Assembly: GCA_964374105.1 (NCBI GenBank)
Contig: CAYJXI010000001.1
Span: 7,743 to 71,742, forward strand
Reading direction: 5' to 3'
Source: an uncultured Planctomycetales bacterium
GTDB lineage: Bacteria > Omnitrophota > Gorgyraeia > Zapsychrales > JANLHA01
Length of the DNA stretch: 64,000 nt
Within the stretch, counting starts at the first letter, position 1. Each line of letters opens with the position of its first letter. The notes beneath the pieces are model-generated. The model made no database searches, was not told the DNA's origin, and worked only from the letters and a program-made list of their open reading frames with translations. This document shows, piece after piece, positions 2 through 48,600 of the stretch. The position numbers and the translations under genes were made by a program.

Positions 2-660
2 GGGAAGGTCGCTGTGGAGACTGCCGTCATCATCGCCGGGCTAATGCTGGTCAACAAACATCTGCACAATAGATATGCTTTACAATTCATTTCGCTCGCC
101 GCCTTGACGCTGGCCATCTCCTTGATCCTGCACGGCGGTAATGTGATAATTCAGTTTGGTCAATTTGGGGATGTGTTGATTTGGAGAGTCCTTTCCGTCT
201 TTACCGGCACATTGATTTCCAGCCTGCTTTATGAGAAAGACAAGACTTTAGGTCAAAAGATTCTCTCCTCAATCCGCTGGACAGCGGCCATCAGCATTTT
301 GAGCGGGTACTACTTGTACTTTACATTTATTCCGTTCATTGGCGAGAGCTTCTCTGTGGAACGTTTCGGGGCAATCGCTTCCTACCTCAAATCGGCCTTC
401 GACCTGACGATCGGAAGTTTATTAACGATTCCGTTACAGGTCGCCTTTGGCGCGGCTTTGGGTGAGAAAAAGAATATTGTGACCCAGTGGGAAGAATTCA
501 AGACAACCGTCATAACGATTTATCCCATCAACTTCCTCTTCTGGTATCCGATGATGGTCATTGGTTGGTCCTTGTTCCCGGATGCATTCATTTTCAAGAA
601 TTATCATGCGGTTTTGGTGACCTTCTGGATGGGCATCCTTTCCCGCATTGTTAAGGTGTC
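2..660 (+). other. Cluster of ~6-7 predicted transmembrane helices
   Basis: Hydrophobic stretches such as VAVETAVIIAGLMLV, LQFISLAALTLAISLIL, VLIWRVLSVFTGTLISSLL, AAISILSGYYLYFTFIPFIG, ITIYPINFLFWYPMMVIGWSLF, AVLVTFWMGIL. Confidence 0.6.
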
Positions 661-15600: not shown

Positions 15601-18600
15601 ACCGGTCTGGTTTGAATTACTTACTCTCTTGGCGCAGAGATTGGGCAAGCAGGTATTGATCCCTGTTAAGGTGGCAGGCATGATCTTTGGTATAACAGAA
15701 AGTTTACAGGCTCAGCATATTCGGCCAATTGAATTGCCTGCTGAATTAAGCGTACTGCGTGTAGAGATGTTTAGATTTCCATCCAGGCTCTGGTATGACG
15801 ATCTTGGATTTACAAAGATTGATCTAGCTCAATCGTTTGAGCTGGAAGTATCCGGACAATTCTATATCTTCCCAGCGAAAAGGGATGATCAGCGCGAAGA
15901 TAATCCTGTGACTCCTGAGCCCACCGCCACAAGGTCGGGTGAACCGCTTTCAACAGAACAAGAAGACAAACTTCGGGAATACCTTAAACTCAAGGTAGGG
16001 CAGTTCAGCAGTTATGCGGACATTAAGGTAGACCAGATTGAGGCAACCATCAAGGCCTTGCGTGAGGCGGGCTTGAAAGCCTTGGCGAAGCGGCTGGAAG
16101 AACTCAAAGAAGCTCGTAAAATCCGCGCTGGGCCCAATGATGTTTTTGAGGAATTAAAGAATTTCGGCATTGATCTCTTGGCCTTCAACTTTAAAGACTG
16201 GATCATCATCCATCCGGAATTAGTAGAAACCCCCCATCGCATTCGCTTGCATCAAATCCTCACCCATGAGACAGCAGCAGTCCTTGGCTTCTCACATAAG
16301 ATTAACCTCATGTTTGAGAAGGTCATCACCAAAGAATTCACACAACAAGAACCAGGGTTTATTGATTTAGGTGAAAGAGAAAAGGTGTCTATCCCCGTTT
16401 CTGTAGTTGACAAAGTCGAGACTATCACTTTTAGAACTCAACCAGTTGGTTATCAAATCAAGAACAGACAGGTCATTCGGTTAGAGAATAGATTAAACCC
16501 GGATTTTGCATTGGCAAAATCCGCCCGAAGGGCCGCTACGGCATCCCGCCATGGCGGGACGCCTAGCGGGGTTAACCCCGCCAAAGGCGGCCGAAGGCAA
16601 AATTTGCAAAGCACTTTTCTGTATAGAAACAATCAACGAGGTCAAAGTCCTATTGCAAATTTTGGGTTAAAAGGCGATATGGCTAATGCTGTTCTCGGCA
16701 GAGGCAAGGGAGTCACTTTGTGGGAGGGCGGGGCTATCCAATGCAATTATTGTGTAATTTGGGATAGTTCAAGACGACAAGGGGCGATCATCCACACGAA
16801 TTATCTCCAATCCAAAGACATGATGGTGTCTTTCTTGAGAAATATTTTAGAGATATTAGGAATTCCATTAGAGGATAAGAGCTATTTAAGAGATCACGTT
16901 TTGACAATGATAGCTAATGCTCCTCACCAATCGGTCTTTGTCAGTGAGATGTCAAAGAGAATCGAAACCGTGCTGGCTGACAGCTTGGATGAATTAGGAT
17001 TGCCTCGGCTTAGGACGGATACCAGCGTTGCCTGGTATGTTACTCATATTCAATTTTTCGTAGATAAAGGAATAATACGATCAAGCTATAAGATTAACGA
17101 AAGGCAATTTTATCAAGTGGACTTAAAAGAATTGTCTAGATTGCGAAAAATGGGAAAAATGGGGACTGTCCCCATTTTTGAAGCCTCCGCGCCAATCTTC
17201 CGTGCCCTGCCTGCCGGCATAACAGGACCGCTTGAAGCCTTCGCTCCAATCTCCCGTGGCTCCCTGTACCACGTAGGGTACAGGGCCATGAACCCAACGT
17301 GGTTCATGGGGGTCATGAGAATTGTTTCCCAAACGACAGCGGCCCTTTTAAAATCTTCCGTGGCAGGCCCCGTAGAGAAACTTTACGGGGCAGGGAGGTC
17401 GCCGCAGATACCACTTGCACAAATCAAGGGACCGGTTATGCCTCACCATCCGTGGCAGGTGACGAGCATTCACCAGGGCCCATCTGCGGCGGCCTCTTCT
17501 TATCACAAGTCACAAGACATCCTTCGACTTCGCTTGGGACAAGCAAGTCAGCCCGCCCTGGTCTTCGCAACTGGCGGGCCAGGGAGGTCAGCCCGCCCCG
17601 GTCTTCGCAACTGGCGGGCCGGGGAGGTCAGCCCGCCCCGGTCTTCGCAACTGGCGGGCCGGGGAAGTCAGAAGACCCAAGATTCAGGACGCACAACGCA
17701 GAACACAGAACCCAAGACTCTGAACTCATTTGCACCTATCGTGATTGTGGGTTTAGGGATTGCAACGGTTGTCATCATCATGACGATCAAGGCTAAGAAT
17801 CGACTCATGAAGATAACCAAAGACTTTTTAAGTATTGCGACATTGATGGCCGTTGTTGGAAGTCTTTGGACGATTTGGATAAATCGTGAAAAAGAAGTTG
17901 AAGTGATTCCAAATACTCTTGATTCCCTCCCCCTTGTGGGGAGGGTTAGGGAGGGGGTGAGGTTACAGTCTTCACCCTCCCCTAGCCCCTCCCATCAATG
18001 GAGGGGAAATACAGGATTGGGAGAACAGGACGATTCAGCAAGAATTGTTTCGAGTGTCGGCCCAGAATTCTACAGAAGTGTCAGTGCCATACTCAACAAT
18101 TGGTTAGAGGAGAGAATGAAATATATTGTGATTGAATTAGCACCCAGAATGAGTCAAGAACAAACACGGAACCTCTTTCATCTCCTGAGGGCCATGCAGG
18201 AGGTCACAGAAACAAGTGGCTTGAATACACCTCTGCTGGGTGTAGATCGTATGGCCGTTGGCTTCCACGAAAGTGATCGTTTCAAAGCGAATCGTCAGTA
18301 TCGAGGGCCTGCCCGCGGGTGGCTGCAGGTGGAGAAGAATACCATTAAGCATGTGGTGGAAAATTTAATGCCTCGATATCCAACTCTTATTCCCATCGTT
18401 GTGAAAGAAGCCGCAGATTATCATAAGAGGGCAATGACCTTTAAAGATATTCAAAGATTAACGCCAGATGAACTCGGGGTGTTAGTCAGACAAAGGATTA
18501 AATTTGATGTGGCGGTTCATCTTGCTTACTTTATAGAGGAAATGAGTTTAGGTGTCAGGAGGTTAGCCACTCAACATGGTCTTCTCTTGGATCGAGAAAA

Positions 18601-21600
18601 TATTCCTGATTTCGAGGAAGGGTTGATCGAACGAGAAATCCGACAGTTAGTTAATGATAGCAACAATCCGCAAATCATAGACAAGATCTTGGAGGAAATG
18701 ACTAACCTGTGGCTTAACCAATGGAATCGAAAGCCGGGCGTCTTACAAAATCGGATTAATGAACAATCTCGATTGTCTCAAGAGATCCCATCTCTCAAAG
18801 AGAAGTTGGCAGATACGTTGAAAGACAAAAAAGATTTATTGATGCTTCGACCAGGCTCAGCATCAATCCTGAGCGAAGTCGAAGGATTGAGACTCTTTAA
18901 GACTCAAGCAACAAGCCCGAAAGAATTCTTATCATTCGCTGAACAGTTAATTCAACTGACTAAGGCTTCGGATGAACGTATTTCCCAATTACCCAGTGCG
19001 ATTAAGAAAGCCATCCGAACGATCATTAAAAAGGAAGAACGATTGAGCGAATTACCTGCCGAAATGGAAGAACTGAGAACCGAGATTAAGGCCTCCCAAG
19101 AGAAGTTTAGAAAAGAGATGAATGAACTTAAGCCGATCTTTAGATACATCTACATCGCGATGAGATTGCAGGTGATTTACAGCAAAGCTGTCCTTGCCTT
19201 GGAGAAGGATTCTCATCAATCCAATGCTACAAGCCAGGAGAAAAAGTCAGATAGCATCATTAGAGAAAAAATAAAATCTCAACCTAAGCCAGTTACAAAG
19301 AAAACCAATCGAAAAGGAAGATCATCCCTGAAGGCCATAAGTGAGGTTTATGGTCTAGTGCTTGTCGTAGGGCTTGTGATTTTAGGTGTGATAGAGCTCA
19401 TGCGACAAATCCAAGAGTCGCAATGGACCTTGGGTGAGCGGTTAAGACAAGTTCATCAAACAATAAAGAGACTCTTGCCTTTCCGTTGGATGGAAGTTGC
19501 AGGTTCAGGTGGCCTTTCTTTCCCGATGTTTATGGAAGGTATTTTAAACAGAGGAATAGGTGATAATCCATTTTTGATTCATGGCCGAGATGAACGATTA
19601 ATGCTGCCGGTATTTGAACAAATGGCGGATGCGCTTGAAGAACAATTGCTGGTAGCAAGTACAGATTTTCAATATTTGATTCACATTGTACAGAATGGGA
19701 AGAATAAAGAGAACCGTTTAAGGGCCTTAAAGACCTTGATTAAGATCCTGCTTGATCCCAACAAAGAACCTGCTTTGTTAAAGGCTGAGGGTCATCTCAA
19801 TGATAATGACAAACAAGCCTTAATCTCCACAAGGATTCATCAGGCCCTCTTTACTGTTATCAATACTGAAACTGATAAGGAAATTCAAAGATTGGCTTTG
19901 GAGGCGTGGGTTATTAATTCAATTGAATTGCTTGTGGAAAATCGTCATCAGGGGGATTCAGGGATTGTTCTCAATAGAATGTTACGCGAGGTCCTTGCCT
20001 TGAAGGTCGCCCGTTCTCAACAAGCCAATCTTGTCATGGAAGTCCTTGATGCCAAGATAAAACAATCCCCAGATAAGGACTCTCAAGAAGTTATTGAAAT
20101 GATGGATTGGCTAGAGAAGATCATCGAAAGAATCGATGATCTAGAAGAAGATGATGATATTGAATATCGAGGGTCATCGGGACTTAAGGCTTTTGGAACT
20201 GTCAGTATGATCATCCTTTTGGTGGGTTTAGGGACAATTTGGATTTACAAGAAATTTGCCCAAAACAAACACCCGGTGTTTGGCGGTGAACAAAACATAA
20301 GAGGTGAAGAAGTTTCTCGGAGAAAGGTATTCAAATGGATAGGATTAACCGCGGTAGCCATTGTTCTCAACTGCACAGGATGTTCACTAATCTGGCCACC
20401 CAAAGCACAGGATTTTGTACTTGTTAATTATGCGGTTGAGCCTCTCAACTGGGCTAAGATTACGGGGGATGCCCGAGTTGTCTTTTTGGGAGAGACCGAG
20501 CACTTTTCTTCAACCGATAAATATCTTGTTGCCAGATCTCTCAAAGAATTGAAGACATTAGGAATCACCCATTTGGCTCTGGAGAATTTGGAAGTTCATA
20601 CTCAGGATATTGTTGATGCGTATTTAAGAAAGGAAATTCCGTTATCCGAAATGGAGGAAAGGATCAGATCAAACCGGCTCCAAAGACCTAATGGGGAAAT
20701 TGTTTTACCGGCGATTTATCTGCCAGGATACAGAGAGATCTTCCAAAATGCCCAAGCATTAGGGATTAAAGTCATTGCCTTAGATAAACCTAAATATGAA
20801 GAACACACTATCCGGGAGCGTAATCTTCAGTGGGTAGAAATTATTTTGTCTATCCTTAAGAATGACAATAAGGCCAGGCTTTTAGTCATTAACGGCAATG
20901 CCCATTCGAATTATCAATATAGATTCCTAAGAAGAACAAACGCCTTTTATGCCATCCCCCAAGAGTTAACGCCAGTTGTCCCCGAGGCCATTCAAAACGA
21001 AGGCTTCCCAGTGGTCGTAACACAAATGGCAGGTATTGACGGCTCGGACCTCCCAAGCTATAGACATCTTATTATTGAGGCGGTAAAGAGATATGCTCAA
21101 GATGATAAGCGAGTAAAACTTGACCAGCCGCAGATGATGATTCCCCGCGAAGGGTTTGTTGATGAAATTTGCGATTGTTACATTTACGCCCCAGCCGTAA
21201 CGACTCTTAAAGCCTTTGACCCGGTGATCGGTTTGATTATGTTCCTTGGTATTGCCGGGTTGAGTTTATTGAAGAGGTCAAAGGTGAGGTCAAAGGTGAC
21301 TGTCACCTTTGGTGACAGTCACCTTTGGGCAAGGCGCTCGTTCCTAAGGACAGTCTTCGGGCTAGGGACAGCTTTAGGATTAATGCCATTTGCTCCAAAG
21401 AAAGCTCACGCAGAATTAACCGTTGATCAAAACCTGCCACCTGATCTGCGCCAGTTGTTTGAAATGGTAATCCCGATCGCACAAATCATGTTGACTAGGG
21501 AAATAAAAACAGAGGACCAGGAACTTAAAGAGCTCTCGAGAATTTCCCATCGATTCCTCTTAGAACCCGGCGTCAAGGTGACCTTTACCGTAGGTGATCT

Positions 21601-27600: not shown

Positions 27601-30600
27601 CAATATCACAATCGCTTACGGAATGAAAACTCCGTTCTATTTGGAAGAAAGTCATATTTATATTGATTTTAGTGTGCTCTTTCTTACATCGGCAAATCTT
27701 AAGGCATTGTTCAGATGGTCTTGGCTTCATGCCTTTGAGAAAGCCCAAGTCTTCACCCAAGATGAATATTGGGCTGATGCGGTTGGTATCTTTGAGACTG
27801 CCTTAAAGCTCCTACAGGAAGAAAAATTAGAATCGTTAACATTCATAAAGCGGGCTCTCCGTGAATTGAAGATGATGGGCTGGGAGGTCACTGCCTATCA
27901 AAAATTATTTAGGGCGATTACTAATTTGAGAAAACGGGAAGATATCAAACAATACCTGTCCCTCCCCGCACATTTCAATCTCGGGGAATTGATCCCGCTT
28001 AATTTGTACCAATTGGCAAAGATTGAGAGGGCGAGTAGGTCCCAAGGAGAGCCTATTGTTCGAGCCGATAATTTAAGGAAAGCGTTAAACGAGATCCTGA
28101 AGAAACAAAATATCCTGTTGCCCTTGCTGGATCAGGATCCCAGATACACCAAGAGACCGCTCGAAGAAAAGGAGAAGATTTTAGGCCAACTCGCCGAACG
28201 GAAATTCCTGTGGCCTCGCAAGGCGGAAGGTTATTATCTATCTTCCCTTTTGGATCGGCCTTACGCAGAAACAGGACGAGCCTTGACCGCCACGGTTAAC
28301 ATCAACGTTCTTTGGACTGTCCGGATGGTTCCTTTAGAGTATCTGCGTCTGGGAGTTCATTTAAGAGAGGGTTCCCAAGTCGGCCAAGAACTCGTCAAAA
28401 TCAGTTCTACTCGATATGAGATTAACCAGTTCTTAAAAATTTTCTTTGTTGAGTCTAGTAAAAATTATCTGGTTTTCCCCGGGCATCACCGTTTTCATAT
28501 GAATAGTTTGGTGTTATTGAAGTCGGCGTTTGGAGAGGATATTGTGGATGAAATATTCGCCAAAAGAGATTTGAAACAGAGAATGGATTTACTCAAATTC
28601 TTTGAAGAATATCTTTTCATGATGCTTGTTGGCGATGAGAAGAAATACCTTAAGATCTTGCTTTATCTGTATGACAATCCGGGCATTGAATTTAAATATC
28701 TTCTAACGATTTTTGATGGGCGTCTAACACTTAAGTCATTGTTTGAACTCTTCAGTAGGCTTAACAATTCCGCTTTATCAACCGAATTTTCAACGGGAGG
28801 AAGTATCATCGCAACCGCAAGCCGCATTTTATTAAACAGGCTTATTTTCCGATACGGTTTAATTTTTAGTCATTATCTGACTACGGATATTGAGGTGGAT
28901 AAAAATGAGCTCAAGTTCATCTTGAGGAAAAACATTCCAGAATTCCGGCAGCTTCTTGAGTATTACCTTACAATGACAACTAGGGAGGACGAGACGACTA
29001 GGGAGGCCGTCAACAAGTTAGTGAACCTCTTATTGATCGAACCGGATTCATGGCTATTGGAAGAAGTGCGAGGAAGACTCAAACAGACACTGGATTTCAC
29101 CTCTGACTTTAGCCGAGTGTTTGCCATTTCCCTTGAAAGTACGGAACCGTTTTTAGGTTCTGAAAGGGCAGCGATCAAAACTCTGTTGGAGCTGGGAGAT
29201 TATGAAATGATAGTCACGATGTCAAGCAGATTGGAGAATTTTTACAGCATTCATCGACAGACAGCTCAACGTATTTCCGATCATGCAATTGATTATGCCC
29301 TCGCCCTTGTGGTGGGAGCTGTTCAATTGCTTAAGATTACAAAAGATAAGGCAAGGCGGTTAGTTGTCGAAGAAATCTTAAAACAAACAGTTTTGAATTT
29401 GGTGAATTATGAACTGAGCGAAGAAACAGTTTATGGACAAATAGCAGAGCGGGCTCAACGAATCATTAGAATTTTACAATTCATACCAGAAAAGGTATTC
29501 CAAGAAGCCCTCAAGGCATTGGCCCAGATGAGGATCTTAGATGTGATTTTCTTCCGTAAGGAAATGGCATCAGTCAGGGCCGATGTGCTTCGCATTTTAG
29601 ACGCGCAAGTCTTAAGCGCTTATTTCAGTCAAAAGAGCGAGAGGGAGGTTTATGCCAGCCTTACCGAGGTTAAAGATGCTCAATTAAAGCAGCGGGTATT
29701 GGCAGCGATGAGAAAGACAACGGGGGGAGGCATAAAGACCATGACCACTCATGTGCTAAGAAGAGAGATCTATATTAAGGCGATGATCGGCTTACCCAGA
29801 GAAATCACTAATTATTTTGGGGAAAAAGTTCCAAACTATTATGTTATTTTGGGTGTCCCGAGGCAAGCCACTTCAAAAGACATTGATCGATCTTTCAAGG
29901 CATTGGCCATGCTCTATCATCCTGACCGCGCCCCGGAACCGGAAAGGGCCCAGGCTCATCAGGAATTTAAAGTCATTAACGAGGCCTATCAAGTCCTATC
30001 TGATGCAGAGAAAAGACAGGATTATGAAAATAGCATACCCAAGTACGCCCATAGGTATCCCGCCAGTCCTTGGCTATCCGCGGATGTTGATTTGGACGCC
30101 ATTCTAGCCGAGGCAGAAGCTCTCATTAAACCCAAAGAGAAACCCGCTGAAGTTCAAAAAGAAAAGATAGAACAAAAGCCAATCGAGTATCCTCTTGTCT
30201 TAAGAAGCGATTTTTTAAGATGGCAAGACAGTTTGCGTTTCCTTAAAGAGGAAAAAGAAGAAAAGAAAGAAAAAGATACCGAAAACCAGACGCCGGGCCT
30301 ACCCGCAGGACAGGCAGGCACCAAGGGGACACAAAAAGGTGATCTGCCTGCCTCGAATAAGGCTGCGCCATTTACCGGGCCTGCCGGCCAGCAGGAAAGT
30401 CATCGAAAAGATGATTCTACCGCCACCCGCAGCGGTGAGCCGATGAGTGAAGAACAAGAAGGGAACTTCCGAAAATATCTTTCCGCAAAGGTCAAGGGAT
30501 TTAGCGGCTATAAAATTGTTGAGGAAGGTCACATTGAGGCAGTGATCAAGGCCCTGGCCGATGTTAGGCTGGAAGTCTTAGCCGATCGGTTAGGGCAGCT

Positions 30601-33600
30601 CAAAGAAACCCGAAAGATCCGCGCCGGGCCAGTTGAGATCTTTGTTGATCTTAAATCCCAAGGAATTGATTTACTGGCCTTTAATTATGAAGGCTGGATC
30701 GTTATCCATCCGGAATTGATTGAGGCCCCAGACCACCTCTACTTGGACCAAGTCCTCATTCACGAGACAGGTGCCGTCTATGGCCTTAAGCATAACATCA
30801 ATCTCATTTTACAGAAAGTCGTCACTGAGAGACTGACGGAAGAAGAATTCCAAATGATCGATAAGGCCATTAAAGAAAAAGAGAAAAAAGGTACTGACTA
30901 CGAGGGGGTTGCAAATCAAGATTATGCCAGGATGGCCCAGCAACTTAAGATGGCTCGGAATTCCTTAACCGCTCAGTTCCCCGAAGAATTCAAAGTAACG
31001 ATTCCGGGACTCAATGTCCAAGAAAGAGAAGCCTTCTATTCTAAGGCCCGCAGTAAGACATACGATGGATTTAGATATCTTACGCACGGGTTAACATGGA
31101 TAACCTTTGAACATGAACAATTCCCGCATCTTCTCTTTCATGTCTATAAGACAGATTATAATCTCGCCTTTATCTCTTCCATTCTTCGAATTAAACTAGC
31201 CCTTTATCTTTTAGGACAAAGGCAGGTTAAGGTTGACGGGATTGAGATGTTAGAGTTTACTGGCGAAGACTATCAATATGCTTTCTTCGATCAAGTGGTA
31301 ATAACGAAAAAACCAAGCACTATCGGTGACTTTGGAGAAGGGGTTACCGATTATGTGTCTTTGAAGCCGATTATCGATAATTTCCTGAAGGCTGCTGAGG
31401 CAAGGATGTTAAGAAAAATTGAGCCTCTGATGTTCGATGAGGCGGCAATCCGTAAAGTATTAGAAGACTATTTTGAGGTGAATTTCCCCGATACGAGTTC
31501 ATTGTATTTTGTTCTTCCAGCGGTCTATCAACAAGCGAAGGAAAACTGGGAAACCGAGGAAGAGGCTTTATTAAAGGTCTTAATGGCGGAGAAGTATCTG
31601 CAAGAGCAAAGTAAGAGACTCTATGTTCCATCCATCGATGAATCTGAAGCCGTCGCTAGTGAAGGAGAAACAGCAGAAAACGAAGAACATTTACCAAAGA
31701 TAGAAGAAGCCGTTCAACAGGAAATCGATCGGATGGATATTGAGAAAGGATTAAGTGAACAAGAGGCACAGAGATTGGTGGAAATTTTAAGGCAGTATCA
31801 CCATATCTCTATTAAGGCAGCAGAAAATGAGTTGGTTACATTCGGTTATTATGAAGATAAAGAAAAAAGTGGATTGAGGTTGGTGCGCACGATTATATCC
31901 CTTCAAGGACGCAGGGTAGGAGTTATCGATTTTATGATCGATCATGATGGAAGTCTTGCCAAAGCCGATTATGGATTCAAGCCACATTTTAAGAAGATGG
32001 AGCGGGATATGAGGCTTGAGGAGGTTCCGGAAAATCAGGATCTTGCTATTTATGTTGAACCAAGGTATCAAGGTTTAGGCATTGGCCGCACTCTGATGGG
32101 TCTGGCTTTAAGGATAGCGAGGCAATTAGGGGTTAAGGAATTCTCGTTACGAGATGTGTCCGTAGGTTTCGAGCCGAAAGCCGAGAAAATGGGTTTCAAG
32201 AAAAATGAACATTCGGGTCGTCTCAACGAATATTTCTGGCCTTTTGAAGAAAGAGAACTGCCTAGGATTCAGATGAAAATAAGCGGCAGGTCCCAGGCCC
32301 AGGGATTTGAGCCCAAGGGATCTATTCGCTCAAAACATCGCGGGGAAGTGGATTTAAGTGAAGAAGAGATGTCGAGGATCATGGCTAACCCACAGACTAA
32401 GGTCACCCAGAGATATAACAGAGAGTGGATTTTAAGAGTCATGGGTGCCTTGGAGGCCTTTGGCGGACAAACAACAGTTAACGGGGAACAGTTATTGAAT
32501 CGGATAAAGAAACGTATCGAAGAGGCGATACTGTTCTATGAGAAAGAGCGAGATCAATGGCAGAGGCAGTATGAGGCTACGATGGATCGAAGACAACGGG
32601 GATTGTATTTTAAGTATATGACAACCGCGGAAGGGATGATCAAAGAGCAAAGGGAACAAAAAGAGTTGTTAAAAGGCTTGTTTGCTGATGTCAGGAGTAT
32701 TTATCAAGTGGTCATCGACACCATTGGGAAGTTTAAGATTCATTCGGTGATATTACCGGAATCGGAACAATCTAAATTGATTAAAGGTCTTGATAGATAC
32801 ATCGTCATGTGGGTGAATCCTGGGGAAGATTCTATCGCTGAAATAGCCGGCCTTTTGGATTATTTAAGAACTCAGCCCCAGGGGATCCTGCTTGTCAGTG
32901 CAGCCTTAGGGCATGAGGCATTAGAATTTTATTTAAGAAAACAAGGGATCGAGGCTGATTTAGCCCATGCCTTGGCGGAAGATTTTGAGCGTATGATTCT
33001 TAAGGAAGACCTAGATACCCCCAAGAGTCAGTATGATTTGGCCATTGAAAGATTTTTGAATGAGAAAATATTGGGTGTTGTTGAGGTAGGGGCACGGCAT
33101 GCCGTGCCCCTACCTTTGACCAAGTCTGTAATTGCTGGGGATAGCTCGCCTCGTGCCGAGGACATCGGCGCTGTCATCGAACCAAAGACAGCCGAAGGTG
33201 AAGTAGTTATTGTGGAACCAGTTACTGCGGAAACGAAAATTGAAGAGAGGCCAAAGGAAGAAGCCGTTGAACAAAAGGCCTTAGAGGCAGAAGCAATTGA
33301 AGAACGAATTGAAAAGCCGGCTGTTACTGTTGAAGCCCCAACTCAAGAGCCAATCAAACCAAGTCATCAGCGCAAAGGGATTACTGAGGAGAGATTCTTA
33401 GAGGTTGCCTTGAATCATTTGGAGGATGAGAATCCGCGCGAGACCATTGCTCTTGAACTCGGGATTAATATTCAAACAGTTTCTTATTGGTTAAAGAAGC
33501 TGGGATTAGCTGGGGAAGTTATTGCAAAACGATTCAAGAAATCTGTAGCCGAGAAGGGAGAGAAGAAAGAACAGAAGAAGGAAGACCAGAAGGAAGGGGC

Positions 33601-36600
33601 GGCGATCCCTGAAGTTAAGGAAGAGGCAGCGACCGGTGAGGTCGTGAAAGAAATTTCGATACTAGCTTTTGAAGAAGTTAAGATCAAAGCGCCAAGCGTG
33701 ACTGAAGAACAGAAAGAGTTAACCGCGGAAGAATTGTTTGATTCCGTAATTCAAGAAATGGTTGAGAATATGCAAGTTTATATTGAATTAGAAGCTGATT
33801 TTGATGATTTCTGGACCGAAGTGACATCTGGGAAAAAGATTTCTTCTGAGGTGGCGCAAGCTGTCCGCCGGCGGTTGATTAAGGAGTTTGACGTGCATGA
33901 TCCTCAGCAATTTTTCAGTGTACTTATGGCCAGTCATGGCAAAAAGTATGGTTCTTATAAAGAGTTGTTTGAAGCCACAAATGTAAAGACAAAGGTGATA
34001 CGAAGAATTGATCGTGCTTATAAGCGCTTAACGGGCTTAAGTTTGATTGAAGCGACACAAGGTGGGGCAGAGGGAGAGGATCAAGAAGAGCAAACCCAAG
34101 AGCGACTTCCCAATTACTATCATCTTATTGGTATGAATACCCGAGGCCGCGCTGAGGCGCCGACACAGGGCGATGTTCATCGGTTCCTCTTAGGCAAGAA
34201 GCGGCTGACAGGTGAGTTAAAGGGACTAGCCAAATGGCTCGAAGGTCATCTTCCGACTTATCAAGGCGATACATTAGAAGATTATCGCAGAGAATGGACC
34301 AGGGTTTACGGTAAAGAAAAAGGTTCACCCAATCGTTCTGAACCAACCGCCACCCGTTCGGGTGAGCCGTTGAGTGAAGAGCAGAAGCGTCAGCTGAGGG
34401 AATATCTTAAACTCAAGGTTGGGCAATTCAGCAGTTATGCGGTTGTCGAAGACACGGCCATTGATACAACTATTAAAGCCCTAGGTGAGGTTGCCTTTGA
34501 AGTCTTGGCGAGTCGCTTAGAGCAACTCAAAGAAACCCGTAAAATCCGCGCCGGGCCGAATGAGATCTTTAGTGAACTTCAAGCTCTCGGCATTGCCTTG
34601 TTAGCATTCAATTATGAAGAATACGTCATTGTCCATCCGGAATTACTCGCCGCAGAAAAGCAAACCCGTCTAAGGCAGATTCTTGCTCATGAAACTGGTG
34701 CGATTTATGGTCTGGAACATCAAACCAATCGATTATTAGAAAAAGTCATCACTCAAGAATTGACGGCTGAAGAAAGGGAAGCGATCCACAACGAAATTGT
34801 TAGTTTGGCTCAGCCAGAGGAAGAACAGTTAAGATCCTTCCGCGAGCTTATCTTAACGAAGATCACCAGTGACGCCATTAGGCAAAAGGCAAAGCAGATA
34901 TTAACCAAGGCGCGATTAAGGGCCCTCTTACAGCCATCAGCTAAGCATTACACCAATGAATTTAAGCCCATTAAAGATATTTTTGAAAATTCACGATACG
35001 GAGAAACTATTAGATTAGTCAAAGAGGATACTAAAGCTATTGTTGAGGCCGTCAAAGAGATGAAACACATCTTGGCAGTTAATCCACAGAGCCATCTGTT
35101 TGACATCGAACAATGGGATGAAAGGGTCTATGCTCCTTCCATGAGAGGAATGTTCGATCAATTTGAGAAGAAATCACTGACCATTGAGGGACTTAAAAGA
35201 CAGATGCAGAAAATAGTAGAGCCATTTAGTGTAGCCTTTGATCTTACGGAATTCATTAAAGAAAGCGAGGAGCTCGAATTCTATCATTTGGTTGAGATCG
35301 GCGCTTGGGTTTTAGCCAAGATCATTATTCCGCATGGGTTGGTGATTCAGGTTTCTCCATTTGAATCCAACAAGCTGATTAAGGGCCGGGTCCTTAAGGA
35401 TCGAACCGAATTGATTACAACACATGGGGCAGGATTCTCAAGGCAGATTCCGGTTTATACCGTTGATGCTAAGATTTCCGAATTTGGTTCAGGTATTGCT
35501 AGGCCAGATTACATTGTCATGCCATTGAATCTCCAGCATGAAGAACCCCTTATTCATTATCAAAAGCTCTTTAAGGCCTATAGGGAAGGCCGTTATCGTC
35601 CTAAACCGTTTGATATTGACCCGCACGGCTTTTTGCTGGATTGGGTGATGATCAACCTGGTTGGATCCAAGACGACAAGTGAGGTACAGCAACTGCTTAG
35701 AAAAGAGGCACTTCAAGAAGAGATCGCCCATTCCGATACCTTTGCCTTTGTGGAAACCCTCTGGGACAGGAAATATCATTACTTTATGAGGAGTGAAACT
35801 ATCCAATTTGTCCATACGATTTTAGAACCCTCGGGCTGGTTAAGAGAGATGTTCAATCAGCATAAAGAGAAGCCTGCTCTTCACTCACTCACTGCTGATG
35901 CGATTATTGAAGTAGAGGCCAAATTGCAATCTTTGATGAAATCACCTTACCCAGCCCATACGGTCTTGGAGTTCTTGTTAGCCAGTCTCTTCCCTGAAAC
36001 TGCCAAACTTGAAAAGCCCCAATACAAGGTTGCCTATAACACGCTGACTGTTTTGTTGGCCGTCGAACTTTTGAATAAGCCAACCATTGAACTTAAAGAC
36101 TGGTTTGATTTCCTCAAAGAGGTTTACCGGGATCTTGATTTGTTCAACAAACTCCTACCGGAAACTGCAAAGGAAATTTACGAACGGCATTTCTACAGTC
36201 AAGAAGAACGAGTAGCAATTCTAAAAGGAAAAGGTAACAGTCACAAAGAAGCTGGCAGGTCCCTTAAGGATTCTAAGGAAGGGCCGCAGACACTCGCCGC
36301 GTTTGAACCGCTGACATTCATTGCCTTGTTAGCGGGTTTTGGGATTTTAGGAGTTTATATGACCAGATGGGTTGCCGGCAGATTCAAGATCAAAGGGTCT
36401 GATCAACAACACATGCACCGGCGTGGATTTATAAAATTAAGTTTAGGAACTATGGGCTTGGCGGCATTCGCTCCGTTATTGACATGCTGCTCTTTAATTC
36501 CAGGTTCATCGCCGCGTAAAATTAACTCAGATCATTTGATTCTCATCGGTATGGAACACAATGTGTTCGGGGATCCGCAACATCCCGCGAGTGTCTTGCA

Positions 36601-39600
36601 GAGACAGCTTGCTATGGCAGCCAGCCAAGGCGAAATCGTCTTAGGAATTGAGGAAGTTGTCCGAAACGATGCCTTTGAAGAAGAATTTATTAAAGGCCAG
36701 TACGGCTTCAAGAAAGGATTGATCTTTGGATTCGATGAGGAATTCCCTAAGCATTATATTCACACACTCCTCAACTTCGGTCTCCTAGCTATTGGTACGG
36801 GGGGAACGGCAACGGATGAATCTGAAAAAATCATTTTAAGAAGAATAACAACCTCGGCGAGGGTGTATTTACCAATTTTTATAAAGACAAGCTCAGTCGT
36901 TAGAGAATTCTGGAAAGAGCTACCCCGCCAGTTACCGAAAGATGAGGACGGTTCGCTCATAAGAGAATTATATGAAAAGATTGATCGTTTTGTGGCCTCT
37001 GAGAAGGATTCCAACCTTAGAGATTTTCAGACAAAGGCCTTTAAGGAGTTTGAAACTTTTGGTTCCAATATCCTTTGGTCTCGAATTTATAAGATTATGG
37101 CTTCTGCCATGACCGAGGAGGCTATGAAGCATTACAAAGAAATCCACTATCTTAAGGAAAAAATAAATGATTTCCTCAAGAATCCTGTTGAAGAGGAGAA
37201 CCAACGAATTATCATGGAAGAGTTAAATCACTACTGGCGTGAATCCTTTATTATCAAAAATATGAAGGCCATCGCGGATATCGCTATTGAAAAAAGGCTC
37301 CCTGTCTATTTCCTCATCGGATTTAATCATGTTAAGAAAATTGAGGAAGCTTTAGGGCAAAATTATCGGAATCTGAAGATTTTAACTTTTGAACATTTTG
37401 AACAATTCCCACAAAGGCTTTTACCCAGAATCCCAGAACGTGTTTCGGATGCGTTAAACAAACACCGGGTGTTTGGAGAATCATCCGGGCCTCAAGATGC
37501 CAACGAAAACGGCTTGCCGCGAGAGGTTGTTGATTTAGCGGTGTTGTTGACAGAAAGGATCACTAAGCAGCCGATTCAAGACTGGGCCGCAGTTAAGGTT
37601 GATTCTAAGAAAGTCCGACAGGCCATGGTCCTCTTAGGGAATGAAAATAAATTAAGACAGCGGTTGGCTGAAAGCGGGGTTCATTTTGTCCGCGCTCCTC
37701 CCAAGGTTAACATCCTTTGGGATGCTGTTGGGGTAGCAAACTACCGAGATCCCTCTGGCCGTCTTTTTGTCATTCTCCCGCAGAAGACAACCACCGAGGC
37801 GATTGCCCATGATCTTTGGGCGGTTATGAATCCTTCCCTGCCTCACTCCATCAATCCGATCAAGATTTCAAAAGAAGAATTAGACACAGAGACACTTGTT
37901 GAACTGATTGTTGAGACGACCCAAGATACCAAGGATATCTTAAGCCTGCTTGAACATCCGGGCCTGTCGGTTGAAGGCAAGGCCTATATGCTTATCGCCC
38001 TAATTCGCATTGGCCTACAGAATTCTATGCAAACCATCAGCCTCCAATTAGAAAACGAACCCTCCTCACCACAGGACTTGCTGGGTATGCTTGCAAATGT
38101 GCTGGGCCCGGTCTTAGCAAATCTCTTGAGCGGATCCTCCACATCCTTGCTGGAGAAAATCGAAAAGGATTTGGCTAATAGAGGGGACCAGATCATTCCT
38201 GTCTTTGAACGCGCCTTGGAGCTTTTTAAGACGGTGGAAGACCAACGGCAGCGGTGGTTTATTTACAGCGTCTTGAGTGAGATGAAAGAAAAGGGTCTCG
38301 CCGAGCTCATGCGCTATTTTGATAATCCGCCTAACCCTGCCGACCAGGAGTTCATTGTCTACGAGATCACTCAAATGGGTCCGCCTACGTCCATTGAGTT
38401 TGCTCAAAGTCATAAGTTGAAGGACTCGTATGAAACCGTCTTGAACTTTATTATTCAAGCCTTCACCCGATTTGTGCCGCCGATGTTAATGAGATACATA
38501 TTGCTTATGATAGCTAATGAAGGCGAGAAAGAGATTGTCGCTGATATCGTGCGTAAGATGGCGGAAAGCGATAAATCGTATTTTAATAAAATTTTGGAAT
38601 TCCTTAAGGCACAAGGCTCTCCTGATGTTGTGGAAAAATTAAACAAATATCTAGCCAAGGCTGAGGAGACGGGAGAGCAGGAATTCCACTTACCTAAGCT
38701 CAACGTGAATGAACTTAAGATAAGTGCATTTAAGAGTAGGGTAAAGAGGACGATTAAGGGAATCAAGGGCCTTGAGGATCTCCACACCCGGTTTGAGGAA
38801 GGGTTATTGGTGGCCAACGGTGAGCTCAATGATCTTAAGCGCGTGGTTATTCACGGAAAATATGCCGAAAATCGAAAAGCCGCAATTAAGGCTATTGAGG
38901 AAATCCTTCAAGTTGTAGCTAAGACCAAGTTGGCGGGAGGGCAAGTGAGGGTTAAGGGACAAATGATCACCAATGAGGAAGTGTTCCTGCTTCTCATGAC
39001 CCTTTTCCAAGTTCTTGATGAAGATCCAGAAGAAGTTGTTTATAAGGAATCGGCAAGGGCAGCGGTTGCGGTCATCCTCTTATTTATCACGATTGAGGAT
39101 GAGGATTTCCGCTGGGGTTATAAAGAGCGCTATCAATCGTATTTGGATAAACTGCTTAAGTCGCCGCGTATTGATTCGGTAATTGATGCCTTGATTGCCA
39201 TCCGCACCGATAAAGAAAAGGATGACAGGGTCTTGAAGGCTGCAAGGGCTATGCTTACCGATATTGTCAAGGCCCGCGGTCAGGGACCGGATAGCCTCAA
39301 GAAGAATAGGGAAAATGGAGACAGCGCCCAATTCCCTGAAGATTCTACCGCCACTCGTTCGGGTGAACCGTTGACAGAGGAAAAAGAACGGCAATTGAGG
39401 CAATACCTCAAACTGAAAGTTAAAGACTTCTCTGGTTATGGGGTGGTTAATGATACCGCGGTGGATAAAGTCATCACGGCCCTGGGTGAGTCCGGATTTG
39501 AGGTACTGGCGAAGCGGCTGGAAGAACTCAAAGAAACCCTCAAGGTCCGTGCTGGACCGAAGGCGATTTTCGATGAACTCAAGGCCCAAGGCATTGACCT

Positions 39601-42600
39601 GTTGGCCTTCAATTTCGATGTATGGTTGGTTGTCCATCCAGAGTTGCTTAACCCCGCCGAGCAAACCAAACTTCAAGAGATTCTTGCCCACGAGACCGGT
39701 GCGATTTTCGGTTTACCACACGAAGTCAATCGACTTCTAGAAAAAGTCACGACCCAACAACTCACTCAAGAAGAAATCCAGGATCTTTTTGATGCCGCCC
39801 AGGAGATCCTTAAATCACAAAAGATGACTCCCAGAAGTCCTGCTGGCCGACAGGAAAACGGAGCCTATCCTGCCTCAGAGAAGATCGCAAAAGAAGATAT
39901 CATCATCTCAGTGCCGTTGTTCTTCCTGGAAGGGACGGCGTACAATTCCATCCGGAAGTACTCTCTTCGACTAGAGAAGCTCAGAGGGATTGGTCCTCTC
40001 ATAAGAAGTGGACGATTCTTTATCTCTAAGTACTTCCTGCCAGAACTTATTGGTGTGGCTAGAAAATTACAAGAGCGGAAGGCGAATGCCATTCATTTTG
40101 ATGTTCAACAAAAAGAGGGAATACAAAGATTGGGAGTCCTCGGACAGGATATCACTAGGATCTATAATCCCAAATTAATCCGGCGGTTACGCCAAAACGG
40201 CGTGACCCTTCCCATCGAGGTACATCTTATGTATTGGCAACCCTCTTCCCGGTATTTGAGGGCTTACAGGCAAGCGGGGTTAGGTTCCCAAGATACCATT
40301 TTCATTCATCATAACGCTTACGAAGATCCTAAGGAATTAGTTGAAAAATTGGCGCTGATCCGCACCCTGGGGATAAGAGCGGGTATTGCCTTGAGTCTCC
40401 AATACGGCACTGAGGAATTGACCGAAGAGATGTTGATTTCTGCTGATGCCATTCTCTTGTCGGCGGTAATGGAAGGAACACGTGGAGGGACATTTGATTC
40501 CCTGGTGGCTCAGAAGTCGAAAGAAATTTTATCTAGAAATTTCCAGGGAAGGATCCACATCCAAGGCGGGATTAATAAAGAGACTATTGGAATTGCTGCC
40601 TCAGGTGGGGCAACGGCTTTCGTCTCCGGTACGTTTGTGACCCAATCACCGGATATGACAAAGGCCATGGGGATCTTAAGAGAAGAGGCAAGGAAAGGAT
40701 ACAAACAAATAACTGCCGGATACCAGGCTGTGCGTAGCGAGGGGATGGATAAGGTGTCTAGTCTTAATTTTGAGGTTCTGGCGGGCAAGACTGTCTTAGT
40801 AACAGGGGGCGCTGGCTATATCGCCGCTGGTGTTATCCATGATCTATTGAAGGTGAATACCGAGGTGGTCATTTACGACAACTCTATGCGGGATCGGGAA
40901 GAAATCACCAAAATGCAAGGTATCACGATAGTGGAAGGGGATTTGAGCGATCAGACATTACTTGAAAGAACGCTTAAGGAGCAAAGAGTTGCGGCTGTTG
41001 TCCACTTGGGGGCCTATATTGCCGCAGGGAACTCTGTGAAGAATCCTGGGAAATATTTCTTTAATAATGTTGTCAACACCCTGACCCTGTTGGATAGCAT
41101 GGACAGGGCAGGGGTCAAATACCTTGTGTTTGCCTCCAGCGCCGGTGTCTATAGCGGAACCCTATTCAATGAATCAGGATTATTGGATGAGAACATTACC
41201 CCGGATCCGCAGAATCCTTACGGTGAAACCAAATATCTGATGGAACGCCTGATGCAGGATTATACAACAAAGAAAGGGATCCGGTTTGTGGCTTTGCGTT
41301 TCTTCAACGTCGCCGGGGCGTTTGAGTGGCAAGGAAGATGGTTCGGCGAAAACCATGAAGGGCCTGAGACTCATCTTATCCCACGGGCGATTAAATCTTA
41401 TTTATATGGGAATGAATTGATCCCATTTGAGCTTTTTGGTACAGATTACCAGACACGTGACGGGACGACAATCCGAGACTACATTCATCTTTTGGATTTG
41501 GCTGATGCCCATATCCGGGCTTTGATTCATCTTTTTAATGGGGGATTGAGTTTCATATTGAATCTAGGGACTGGTCAAGGGTCGACTGTTCGGGAAGTCG
41601 TTGAGGGGGTAGCTAAGATTATTAAACTGGAAGAAAACAAGGAGTTCCGAGTTAAAGAGGGGCCACGGCGTGCAGGAGACCCGCCCATCTTGCAGGCCAG
41701 TAGCCAGAAGGCCTTAAAGCAGTTGGGCTGGCAGGTTAAGAGAGATTTACAACAAATTTTGGAGGATGCCTGGGTTTTCCATAATCTAGAGAAACAACAC
41801 GGCTGGTGGAATTTGAAGACCATCGCCCCCGAAGATCGCCTGACCACAACTGAGGCTGAGTTTAGAACAATGGTGACTAAGGAGTTGAAAGCGAATGCGG
41901 TCATCACACCGCAAACCCGGTTTGAAATTCTCTTTAGGTTGTTGATTGATTCGCTGGTTGAAGGAGTTAACGATTCTACATTTAAGTCTTCAGCACAATC
42001 CAGGGCGTTAGTCGAAGGAGCCAGAGGACTCAAATCCCAGCCGGGCGAGTTGATGGAAGTCATCCACAGCAACGAGAAATTCTTTGCTGATTTTGAGAAG
42101 TTCTTAGAATCCCAATTTGTTTCAACGGATCCCTCCCGCCTAGAAATCATATCTCAACTTAAAGAAGACCTTTCCTCAACAACTCTTGGCGGGGAATCCA
42201 ATCTAGCGGACGTGAGCGGTCATCGTGGAAGCCCAATCCCCAGCCGATTGGCCGAGATGAGGAAGAAAGGGAAGGGAAAAGAGGATCATCATCCTGAAAG
42301 AAAGATAGATCCGAGGGAAGGGCCCAATGGTCTTTCTGCGTATGAACCGTTAGTTATGCTTGTCTTGTTGGCGGGAGTGGGAATCTTAGGAATTTATAAG
42401 AAAAGGTGGTTTGCCAAGAGATCGGCTATCTTTGAAGGGCGTGTTGATCATCAAAGAGAATTTGAGATTATCGATCGGATTTATTCTTATGTCTTATCTG
42501 GTATTGCTCGATTCCAAACCACGTCAGTACTATTATTAACAATAACAACATTCCTAGTGCCATTTCCAACATTTTACTTGTCTCCATTGTTCTTGCCAGG

Positions 42601-45600: not shown

Positions 45601-48600
45601 AGCAGAAAAGGTTTCAGCCGGTCTCAATGCTGAGGATATTGTCAATGACACCACAACCAGCGCCGAAGTTGCGGCTCTGGCTTTTAGCAAACACCCGTGG
45701 ATTGTCGATAATGTTACCGCCATTGTCTGGCGTGCCAGCAGAAAACAAAGAAAAGAGCATGTCCTCAATACAAGGCCACAACTCCTGTTAGAGGCACCGC
45801 CACAGCGAAAACTCTTGCCACGACCGGCACCGAGAGGGCTAAACGAAAAACGCATTTTTGAAGAATTAGAAAAATTAAAGGTGACTGTCACCCAAGGCGA
45901 TAATCACCTTTTTGTGGAACGATTGCAAAATGCAGAAGATAATGCCGATCGCATCAAGATATTGTTAGAAGCATATCCACTGGAAGGCGTCAACATCGAG
46001 GTTGCCTCACCCAGAGGATTTTTAAGTTTTAGGGGAGTCGGTCGAACCGAAAGAAAAGGTCCACATCATTATCAGATCACCTTGATAGGGGTATCAGGAG
46101 ATGTCGAGATTTATCTTCTGTTCCATGAATTTTTGCATGTGTACTTAGAAGAAAAAGGCTTGACCTTTAATCCGGTCGTTGAAGATGAATCCTTAAGTCA
46201 GTATCTCTTTAAGTTAAAGAACTTGATTAACGATTATATTATTGAGAAAGAAAACAAGAGACGATTTGGCAATCGTTTTGTTCATATCACCCGAGATTTA
46301 CGAGATCGAGATGTCAGAGGTAATCTTATGGGTATGGGGTTGGGCACAAATCTGGAAATCTTTATGCTTGCGTTAACTGCCAAAGTGACAACTTCCCTGT
46401 ATCCCGAACTAGCCGACTCCTTCTCTCAACAATTTATTGGCAAGGCGGTTGAGTACAAACCTCTAGATAACGTCCTCAAAGAGCTTCAAGGTGTCTCTAT
46501 CGCAAGTAGCCCAGAGGAATACAGAAGAACAATCACAAGACTCCAGGAGTTAATGACGAAAAGTTCTCTTACCTTTGAAAATGATCGGCCAGTTGTTTCT
46601 CTTAAGGAAACTAAGAAATTCATCGAAGAGATTGAAGCAGATATCCGCAGATTAATGAACTTAATTAGCGGTCAAGAGAGAGGCACGGCAAGTGAGGAGA
46701 AATTGAACACTTATTCCGAATTGCCCGTAACAGCAGAAGATCATAAACGGGCGGTTGATCAGTATTCTTTAGGTCAACAAAAAGAAATTGTTCATACCCA
46801 ATTGGCTTTGACTGAGGAAGGTCTTCAACTCGAAGTTGTTTCTGGTTCATTAATAAGTGATGGGGAGAAAACACTCAAACAGGATCTTAACAAACTTCTT
46901 GAGGAGATCCGTGGGCCGCCCGAGGTACTGAAGGACATCATTGATGTGAAACTTGTGATCACCACCCAACCCACCCAGTTAAGAGACGGCAATAGATACA
47001 CTATCTACATTTCCTCTGTCAATATCATTCGAAGGACAGTTTATCTCCATCCACAGTACTTCTCAATCAGTGATCAGAGATTAAGGCTGGATATTCTTTA
47101 TCATGAATTGGTCAGTCATCTCTTTAAACGCATCAGAGACGAACAGATGGCGATGGCTGATACCAAGGCCTTCCGGCAAAGACTGATTCAGAAAATCCAA
47201 GAAGATCTGGCCGTGTATCCTAGGATCTTCTTACATGAAATCACTAGAAACCTCAAACAAAAATTGGATCAGCAAATCTTTTCTATGGCAAGAACCCTCA
47301 ACCAAGGATTAGCGGAATATCCATTTATCAAGATCATTGACAGTATGAATGAATTCTTATCACAGATTGCGGAGAGATTAACTCATCCGGATGAAAAGAT
47401 GAGGATTTATCCTAAGGTGGTTGTCAGGACTCATGAAACCGATGCCCGTCATACCGAAGTTCCCATCACTCACCGCCAGGCGAGAGTGGCGGTCTTCCCA
47501 GTGGCGGGCAATCCCTTGCACTGGGCGCATATTTTGATCGGACTTAAAGTCATAGCCCAATTTGGCATCGACAGAGTTATTTATCGTATTCAGGGTTTAG
47601 ATGATCGCAAACCTGATCTTGAAATCAATGAGAAACTCCGCCATCACATTGATGAACAAATGATGAAAGTCTTTGCCCCGCTTTTTGACTATTCCCCATC
47701 CGGAAAAGGTTCCACCTTTGACGGCGAGACTGATTTTGACCGATACTATGGCTTTAATGCGGGGGTGAAACTGGATCTGTATTATGTGGTTGGTGCTGAT
47801 CATTATCACCGTGAGGTCAACGGTAAGGTAGATACCATAGGCAAGTTGGAAAATTTTGCTGTCAAGGCCGGTCGGGAAATCCAGGATACCTTTGTCATCT
47901 TTATTAAGCGAGGCGAGCTAAAGCACAAGGTTGAGACAGAGCTTAACGTCAATTTTGTGGATGAGATCACCTTTGAGGCCTCCTCGTCCATGGCGAGATC
48001 CGGCAATGTCGCTATCATTCCGTACCTGATTTATCGATATGCACAGAAACATCACCTCTGGTGGTTTACTCAATTTTCTACGCATACCATGACTGAGAAA
48101 ATTAAAAGATCGCTCAGATATGAGATTCATAAAATTGCAAAGGTGCTTAACCGCGGTTTAGAAGATCATCCATTTAATAAAATGTTACCAACAATTGATA
48201 AACTGTCTGCCAAGATCGCCACCCGATTGCACAATGACAATATCAATCCTCAGGTTGTGATCCGAACCCACGAAAAGGATGAACGAGAAATCAATTTATT
48301 CGGCAAACAAAGAATAAGGATTGCTGTCTTCCCGATCTCAGGGAATCCAATCAGTTTAGGCGATCTCATTGTCGCCTTAGGAGCCATGGCTGATTGGGGG
48401 GCAGATAAAGTCATCTTTGTTCCGGCCGGGCAAGAAAAGGACAAGGATTTTGTGGTCGCAGAAGAATACCGACATAGAATCGCAGAAGAGCTTTTGAAGA
48501 GATTGGCTCCCTTCTTTGAATATTCCCCGATTGCCAAGGGAACAACGGATGATGGTGAGACACTTTTCTTAAAATTCTTTAAGTTGAATCAAGGACAGAC

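Follow-up and report, generated by a model that had tools for sequence, protein, structure and literature searches.

A perfect palindrome inside a giant open reading frame has the features of an in-frame, double-foot GTAG repetitive extragenic palindrome

Repetitive extragenic palindromes (REPs) are short palindromic stem-loops of 20-40 bp, and in the parts of the survey on which we draw they were sorted into two superfamilies, tagged GTAG or CGTC, with members in a number of phyla, among them Cyanobacteria, Chloroflexi and the Planctomycetes-Verrucomicrobia-Chlamydiae (PVC) group (Di Nocera, De Gregorio and Rocco, 2013; PMC3733652). According to the same parts of that survey, most GTAG REPs lie just 3' of open reading frames (ORFs) and form sub-families that differ by complementary changes in the stem; a minority are intragenic, found in many genes and read as VG... 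or VA... peptides, and roles in mRNA stabilisation and termination are credited to REPs elsewhere. Transposition of REPs driven by REP-associated tyrosine transposases (RAYTs) is there called hypothesised. A second source, likewise represented here by the relevant sections, associates subclass 2.4 of the TnpA-REP enzymes (RAYT; Bertels group 4) with "long" REPs that carry three G-C pairs at the bottom of the stem, and describes a "double foot" variant with GT[AG]G at the 5' end and C[TC]AC at the 3' end, which sits in frame within the subclass 2.4 tnpA-REP genes themselves, between their HuH motif and their Y motif (Quentin, Siguier, Chandler and Fichant, 2018; PMC6006769). Here we describe a perfect palindrome at positions 33084-33115 of a 64,000-nucleotide stretch of contig CAYJXI010000001.1 (the window, by which we mean the whole stretch analysed), located inside a giant ORF that spans at least 64 kb. 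Judged by its nucleotides, this palindrome carries every sequence feature of a double-foot GTAG REP of the subclass 2.4 type, and we consider it likely that it is an intragenic, in-frame REP that was copied into a linker where the giant gene could tolerate it.

The palindrome (AGGTAGGGGCACGGCATGCCGTGCCCCTACCT; 33084-33115, no strand assigned) is identical to its own reverse complement, with two perfect arms of 16 bp and a spacer of 0, as had been reported in a preliminary description of this DNA. Only about 1.5e-5 perfect 16+16 palindromes are expected by chance in 64 kb (64000 x 4^-16), and the longest stem seen in 20 codon shuffles of the ORF was of at most 11, which agrees with the earlier statement that such a structure is highly unlikely by chance. 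The capacity to form an mRNA hairpin or a cruciform, also proposed earlier, is borne out by RNA folding of the 32-mer, with a predicted energy of -29.3 kcal/mol and a z of -7.0 against dinucleotide shuffles. No second exact copy of the half-site was found in the 64-kb window, and one match with 3 mismatches, located at 46675, is at chance level.

Within the palindrome, a 28-bp core (33086-33113, no strand assigned) has the layout GTAG-GGG-CACGGC·AT·GCCGTG-CCC-CTAC, that is, a GTAG foot at 33086-33089, three G-C pairs, an inner stem CACGGC, a two-nucleotide centre AT, and a mirror arm ending in CTAC at 33110-33113. Thus, the core is a perfect stem of 28 bp (32 bp with the outer pairs), within the size range of REPs; direct reading of the sequence shows both the 5' GT[AG]G and the 3' C[TC]AC feet, with the bottom of the stem formed by three successive G-C pairs (GTAG-GGG-C...G-CCC-CTAC), and the terminal GTAG tag is paired with CTAC instead of forming an unpaired tail. 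Complementarity beyond GTAG...CTAC was not above chance in 180 members of the family from other genomes, and the functional unit is therefore taken as 28 bp and not 32; the outer AG/CT pairs of the 32-mer are probably fortuitous (p ~1/16). The preliminary description was accordingly right about the perfect 32-bp palindrome and about its non-random structure, while the unit of biological relevance is the 28-bp core, and both the identity of the element and the host ORF of at least 64 kb had escaped it. As for other structured elements, no match at gathering score to the Rfam 15 covariance models was obtained anywhere in the window, and a tRNA/tmRNA scan of the window found none. The identity of an intrinsic terminator was considered for the palindrome and rejected, since the tail that follows it (CTTTGACC) has no T/U tract, and it did not appear in a terminator scan of 32500-33700.

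The element is translated. It is covered by 11 in-frame codons on the plus strand (33083-33115; GAG GTA GGG GCA CGG CAT GCC GTG CCC CTA CCT), read as E-V-G-A-R-H-A-V-P-L-P within the stop-free ORF, and the frame is not broken by it; the third phase (frame 2) of the element would begin with a TAG stop, as read from the sequence. The copy studied here is therefore intragenic and does not stand just 3' of an ORF, an unusual site for an element of an ordinary kind. The coding signal of the 40 codons around it equals the ORF average (z = 0.0). The nearest recognisable domain upstream is a GNAT acetyltransferase (31895-32200, plus strand; Pfam Acetyltransf_1, E 7e-7), followed by ~290 unannotated residues, so that the palindrome stands at the end of an unannotated module. 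Directly downstream lies an acidic low-complexity linker (33116-33376, plus strand) rich in E, A, V, K and P, with 18 E in 87 aa, and after it a weak helix-turn-helix (HTH)-like motif (~33407-33517, plus strand; sub-threshold HTH_28/HTH_23 match, E 0.005). Both the in-frame position and the location just ahead of an acidic stretch and an HTH-like motif had been correctly recognised in the preliminary description. An exhaustive HMMER search of 1.84 billion representatives returned two remote protein matches to the flanking region, both weak, HTH-repeat-like and placed over the HTH-like region; no homologues of the flanking protein were found in a word-indexed search of 5.8 billion proteins, nor in metagenome contigs searched with back-translated patterns.

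A genome-wide search, as the preliminary description had suggested, reveals that the palindrome is one sequence type of a widespread, already described repeat family, and thus is not peculiar to the giant gene. One genome per species (~186,000 genomes) was scanned with the pattern GGGGCACGGC-N0-8-GCCGTGCCCC, which represents only the inner 22 bp of the palindrome, and at least 120 loci matched. The matches listed come from Acidobacteriota, Chloroflexota, Cyanobacteria, Planctomycetota, Omnitrophota, Poribacteria, Nitrospirota, Desulfobacterota, the candidate phyla radiation (CPR) and others. GTA at the 5' side together with TAC at the 3' side, both of which lie outside the search pattern, flanked 63 of the 108 listed matches with a loop of up to 3 nt, against a chance expectation of 1/4096; of the 16 listed matches with longer loops, 1 carried both. 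Members are 28 bp (n=51) or 29 bp (n=19) long, and by sequence and architecture the palindrome of the giant ORF belongs with them. A search of the literature for the 8-mer GTAGGGGC gave unrelated primer matches only.

These data also bear on the trivial explanations, namely that the palindrome arose by chance, reflects a motif of the protein, or is an artefact of sequencing or assembly. Chimeric joins can indeed create palindromes; however, the sequence outside the 16-bp arms shows no mirror symmetry, the frame and the coding signal run on at both sides, and the identical 28-mer is present in hundreds of independent assemblies, including isolate genomes such as those of Nostoc and Tolypothrix among the matches listed, all of which makes an artefact unlikely. 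A chance origin is opposed by the same recurrence and by the very low expectation in 64 kb given above, and a protein-level motif by the second reading phase (RGTACRAPT) used in other genes. Altogether, we regard this set of explanations as very improbable.

The stem of the family varies while its foot is maintained. Sibling 28-mers occurring in the same loci keep the outer part and have a different inner stem, an example being GTAGGGGCAATTCATGAATTGCCCCTAC, present twice in an Omnitrophota contig. Viral contigs were scanned with the pattern GTAGGGGC-N12-GCCCCTAC, in which the inner stem is unconstrained, and at least 149 instances were obtained, with 71 different inner 12-mers among the matches listed; within these same listed matches, 82/149 are fully self-complementary and all five outer positions are paired in 90/149, for which the chance value is 0.1%. 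The 71 inner types thus constitute sub-families with alternative complementary stem residues, and together with the 82 palindromic instances they define a constant GTAG-GGG foot with a freely covarying inner stem, which is the pattern expected if a folded hairpin and a sequence tag are recognised. The family occurs in more than 120 IMG/VR viral contigs, which might have carried it from phylum to phylum. More than one copy was seen in several metagenome-assembled genomes (MAGs) or contigs, as in the locus pairs L020 and L041, L026 and L045, and L002 and L053, and in L082 and L108 with two copies each. Among the matches listed, the copies elsewhere stand mostly at ORF ends, and the hairpins of an Omnitrophota locus (L014) lie 13-90 nt past them. 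A symmetric flank preference was observed in 180 GTAGGGG…CCCCTAC elements of the loci retrieved, with a pyrimidine at -1 in 134/180 and a purine at +1 in 122/180.

Intragenic copies are found in other genes as well, with 9 of 75 exact GTAGGGGCACGGC-N0-3-GCCGTGCCCCTAC copies among the matches listed placed in frame within longer ORFs. Two of the hosts are RAYT-like Y1/HUH transposase genes. In the gene of locus L023 (1898-2590, minus strand), which comes from a Dehalococcoidia MAG, the identical 28-bp REP follows in frame directly after the HUH motif (NHVH), the translation being MPNHVHGIIVINC-RGTACRAPT-AERFGKP...WQRNYYEH...YIMDNP; an analogous arrangement, with the identical 28-bp REP likewise read as RGTACRAPT, was found in an Anaerolineae MAG (L074, gene at 60-713, plus strand). 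The L023 protein scores 28.8 bits against Pfam Y1_Tnp, above the 23-bit cutoff, and the best NCBIfam match of both proteins is REP_Tyr_transpos (E 1e-15 to 1e-16), under the 80-bit equivalog cutoff. This placement agrees with the peculiarity that the sections of PMC6006769 cited above report for subclass 2.4 tnpA-REP genes. Further in-frame copies are found near the C-terminus of a Mu-type phage portal gene (L245, 5712-5739), there read as VGARRAVPL, and in an ATPase gene, within its AAA domain (L111, 1882-1909). The intragenic copies elsewhere are thus read in two phases, VGARxAVPL and RGTACRAPT, which shows that it is the nucleic acid and not the peptide that is conserved.

With these elements, a course of events can be proposed for the palindrome. 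In the literature, REPs are the presumed substrates of the REP-associated HUH/tyrosine transposases (RAYT/TnpA-REP, subclass 2.4), and a RAYT is described as recognising the folded single-stranded hairpin with its GTAG foot, and as cutting and rejoining DNA there. One REP would have been copied into the linker at the end of the unannotated module, just before the acidic spacer, and the copy would have been kept, as the phase GTA GGG ... (VGARHAVPL) is stop-free and leaves the frame intact; its persistence would thus follow from the lack of a stop in its phase and from the maintenance of the frame. At this site the element is probably a passenger that adds ~10 residues to the linker, and a predicted mRNA hairpin of -29 kcal/mol would arise that ribosomes must unwind. 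What we infer in this account is that a RAYT of the source genome mobilised the element, that it was inserted and not captured as a pre-existing intergenic copy, and that it is neutral. Insertion is supported indirectly by the average coding signal around the element, which fits a compact insert in coding sequence, by the contrast with the hairpin-rich stretches 16460-18118 and 21170-21445, which look non-coding-like, and by the location of REPs of the same type inside conserved genes (AAA ATPase, Mu portal); furthermore, other repeated palindromes lie in frame, in different phases, in the same ORF.

Several observations weigh against this account. The window holds one copy only, and no RAYT-like (HUH/Y1) ORF was found in any of its frames. 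No empty site, in the form of a homologue or paralogue without the element, came from self-BLAST or from the protein and metagenome searches; in the self-BLAST, the 800 aa around the site matched only themselves. Since 28 bp cannot be divided by three, a simple insertion would require additional bases or some compensating change. The flanks of the 180 members show no target-site duplication beyond chance, and the window copy, with G at -1 and C at +1, departs from the weak pyrimidine/purine preference of the family. Finally, we know of no demonstration of RAYT-driven REP transposition in vivo.

The giant ORF contains further hairpin repeats. One is a 13-bp palindrome (GGTGACWGTCACC) with six copies where none is expected (7202-7214, 7219-7231, 21295-21307, 21311-21323, 45880-45892 and 51653-51665) and a variant at 11016-11029. 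It is in frame in two phases, read as KVTVT and GDSH, and forms on two occasions adjacent pairs that make palindromes of 37-38 bp; one of these pairs occupies a variable loop, and two paralogues of the domain concerned are devoid of it. With A-run and T-run flanks, the GGTGACWGTCACC hairpin is widespread in metagenome contigs of 30-71% GC, where it is mostly extragenic and terminator-like. GTAG REPs were not seen to co-occur with GGTGAC hairpins elsewhere, since 674 kb of loci selected for GGTGAC contained 1 GTAG hairpin. A second repeat is an imperfect long-hairpin element of ~88 bp, with two copies 34 kb apart (17921-18008 and 52241-52328; -59 and -61 kcal/mol), whose core is nearly identical and whose flanks have diverged; both copies are in frame (…DSLPLVGRVREGV…SPSPSPSHQ…), and within the ORF these elements behave like miniature inverted-repeat transposable elements (MITEs) or Rickettsia palindromic elements (RPEs). 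Relaxed Rfam matches at 17920-18010 were dismissed as generic and miRNA-precursor-like, being due to the long hairpin.

Two segments of the ORF, besides, are rich in hairpins, have a low coding signal and look non-coding-like. The first (~16460-18120) includes four short GC hairpins (16500-16581), a terminator-like sequence (AAAAATGGGGACTGTCCCCATTTTT; 17155-17179), two adjacent hairpins with 9-bp stems (17262-17309), a 40-bp hairpin unit repeated 3.1 times (17547-17671) and, amid these hairpins, an unannotated domain of ~170 aa. The second (21170-21445) includes a terminator-like double hairpin (21291-21327) and, directly after it, a sequence resembling a twin-arginine translocation (Tat) signal (ARRSFLRTVFGLGTALGLMPFAPKKAHA, RRSFLR...AHA, also given as RRSFLRTVFGLGTALGLMPFAPKKAHA; ~21329-21412). 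The latter resembles the N-terminus of a once-separate secreted protein, which suggests that gene fusion built parts of the giant ORF. A further cluster of three adjacent hairpins (AGTGACAGTCACT, CCCGCCAAGGCGGG and CCTGCCTGCCGGCAGGCAGG; 10990-11075), in which an 80-nt stretch folds at -39 kcal/mol, is placed between the end of a methyltransferase-like module and transmembrane-looking segments.

The terminator-like double hairpin directly before the Tat-signal-like sequence, which has the appearance of a former N-terminus joined on by fusion, lends credibility to a different origin for the palindrome at 33084-33115, namely that the REP was once intergenic, just past the stop codon of a separate gene, and became coding as neighbouring genes merged into the giant ORF by stop loss, so that it would now mark a relic module boundary. 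Such a capture would accord with the usual position of the family right after ORF ends, with the location of the element, which has an unannotated module on one side and on the other a low-complexity linker leading to an HTH-like motif of a kind typical at protein N-termini, with the low coding signal of the segments 16460-18118 and 21170-21445, and with the nature of the giant protein, a string of otherwise free-standing enzymes. Conversely, the coding signal at 33084 is normal (z 0.0), no relic of a start codon or ribosome-binding site was recognised downstream, the homologue searches returned no homologue with a protein end at the element, and in-frame entry of REPs into established genes is documented, with conserved AAA and portal genes among the hosts (for the documented cases, within the cited sections of PMC6006769). 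We therefore hold capture to be unlikely, though it is the alternative that deserves most attention.

Perfect hairpins with a stem of at least 8 number 22 in the ORF versus ~9 in codon shuffles, and this excess of about twofold touches on a further proposal, that the palindrome is a selected hairpin, acting as a block to 3'-5' exonucleases that stabilises the upstream part of the >64-kb transcript, as a site at a module boundary where ribosomes or RNA polymerase pause, or as a protein-binding site, as some REPs are. Synonymous drift should wear down the pairing, which is nonetheless perfect; at -29.3 kcal/mol the hairpin is very stable, and the roles in mRNA stabilisation and termination that the consulted parts of PMC3733652 mention for REPs elsewhere point in the same direction. 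However, a recent copy explains the perfection equally well, the type has a single copy in 64 kb, the spacing of the hairpins is irregular, and the palindrome has no U-tract, is not terminator-like and has no Rfam match. In our view, selection for the hairpin is improbable. Returning to the REP copied into a linker, a broader extension of it would be that giant ORFs of this type are systematically colonised by several hairpin-repeat families (GTAG REP, GGTGACWGTCACC, ~88-bp elements and tandem hairpins) which survive only in frame and help such genes to grow. This extension is speculative, and we consider it unlikely; if true, repeats and captured intergenic hairpins near signal-peptide-like sequences would supply linkers, recombination points, or read-through junctions welding genes.

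The host gene itself is a single ORF on the plus strand that runs past both ends of the window (2-64000), with 21,333 codons and zero stops, versus 893-1653 stops in each of the other frames, and it encodes a multi-enzyme giant protein. Pfam domains identified along it are HATPase_c, a cytidylyltransferase-like domain, PRK, ChaN, DnaJ (twice), GNAT, ribulose-phosphate 3-epimerase (Rpe), a GalE-like epimerase, PP2C and a starch-synthase-like domain; these are scattered, correspond to otherwise free-standing enzymes and regulators, and are accompanied by many transmembrane-looking stretches. Four paralogous modules of ~150 aa (15902-16366, 30398-30862, 34325-34789 and 39326-39790; …TATRSGEP…KIRAGP…LLAFN…HPEL…HETxA…) share a mutual identity of 56-63%, and this module family had no detectable homologue in the 5.8-billion-protein database, a profile search being likewise empty. 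A class of very long proteins designated "multi-enzyme metabolic cluster" has been described in the Omnitrophota class Gorgyraeia (bioRxiv 10.64898/2026.06.07.730766), and by analogy the giant ORF resembles such "multi-enzyme" very long proteins of Omnitrophota. Palindromes or hairpins are not mentioned in the giant-gene literature with which we compared it, that preprint included, and REP-type elements in giant genes appear to have been previously unnoted.

What makes these observations of interest is chiefly the host gene, together with the hint that its giant frame has hairpin repeats and captured gene boundaries woven through it. The palindrome, along with the other in-frame hairpin repeats and an internal Tat-signal-like sequence, offers a concrete handle on how a multi-enzyme ORF of more than 64 kb comes to be assembled and tolerated. 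Moreover, one exact REP sequence type is common to many phyla and to viral contigs, in which the GTAG-GGG foot stays constant and the inner stem covaries freely. For annotation purposes, peptides such as VGARHAVPL and RGTACRAPT are to be taken as REP footprints and not as protein motifs.

Compared with the known systems, the palindrome is closest to the double-foot REP as presented in the cited sections of PMC6006769, with which it shares both feet, the three G-C pairs, a long perfect stem and an in-frame intragenic site; the host differs, being a tnpA-REP gene or an intergenic site there and a giant ORF, 64 kb or longer, here. With the GTAG superfamily at large, as described in the parts of PMC3733652 used here, it has in common a GC-rich palindrome of 20-40 bp and a terminal GTAG; in that survey, however, the tag is an unpaired tail at one end, whereas here it is paired with CTAC and the element is fully symmetrical. 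Rho-independent terminators share with it a GC-rich perfect hairpin, but the palindrome lacks a T/U tract and lies inside a translated ORF. The RPEs resemble it in being palindromic repeats that stand in frame in genes and add a peptide while the protein remains intact, RPE-4 and RPE-6 being CGTC-type REPs and RPE-1 a longer palindromic insertion according to the same parts of PMC3733652; the 28-mer differs from them in sequence and host lineage, and the ~88-bp elements at 17921-18008 and 52241-52328 are closer in style to RPE-1 than the 28-mer is. Hence, both the kind of palindrome (GTAG REP) and the kind of location (inside a gene) have already been described, and no new mechanism is needed to account for their combination in this giant gene.

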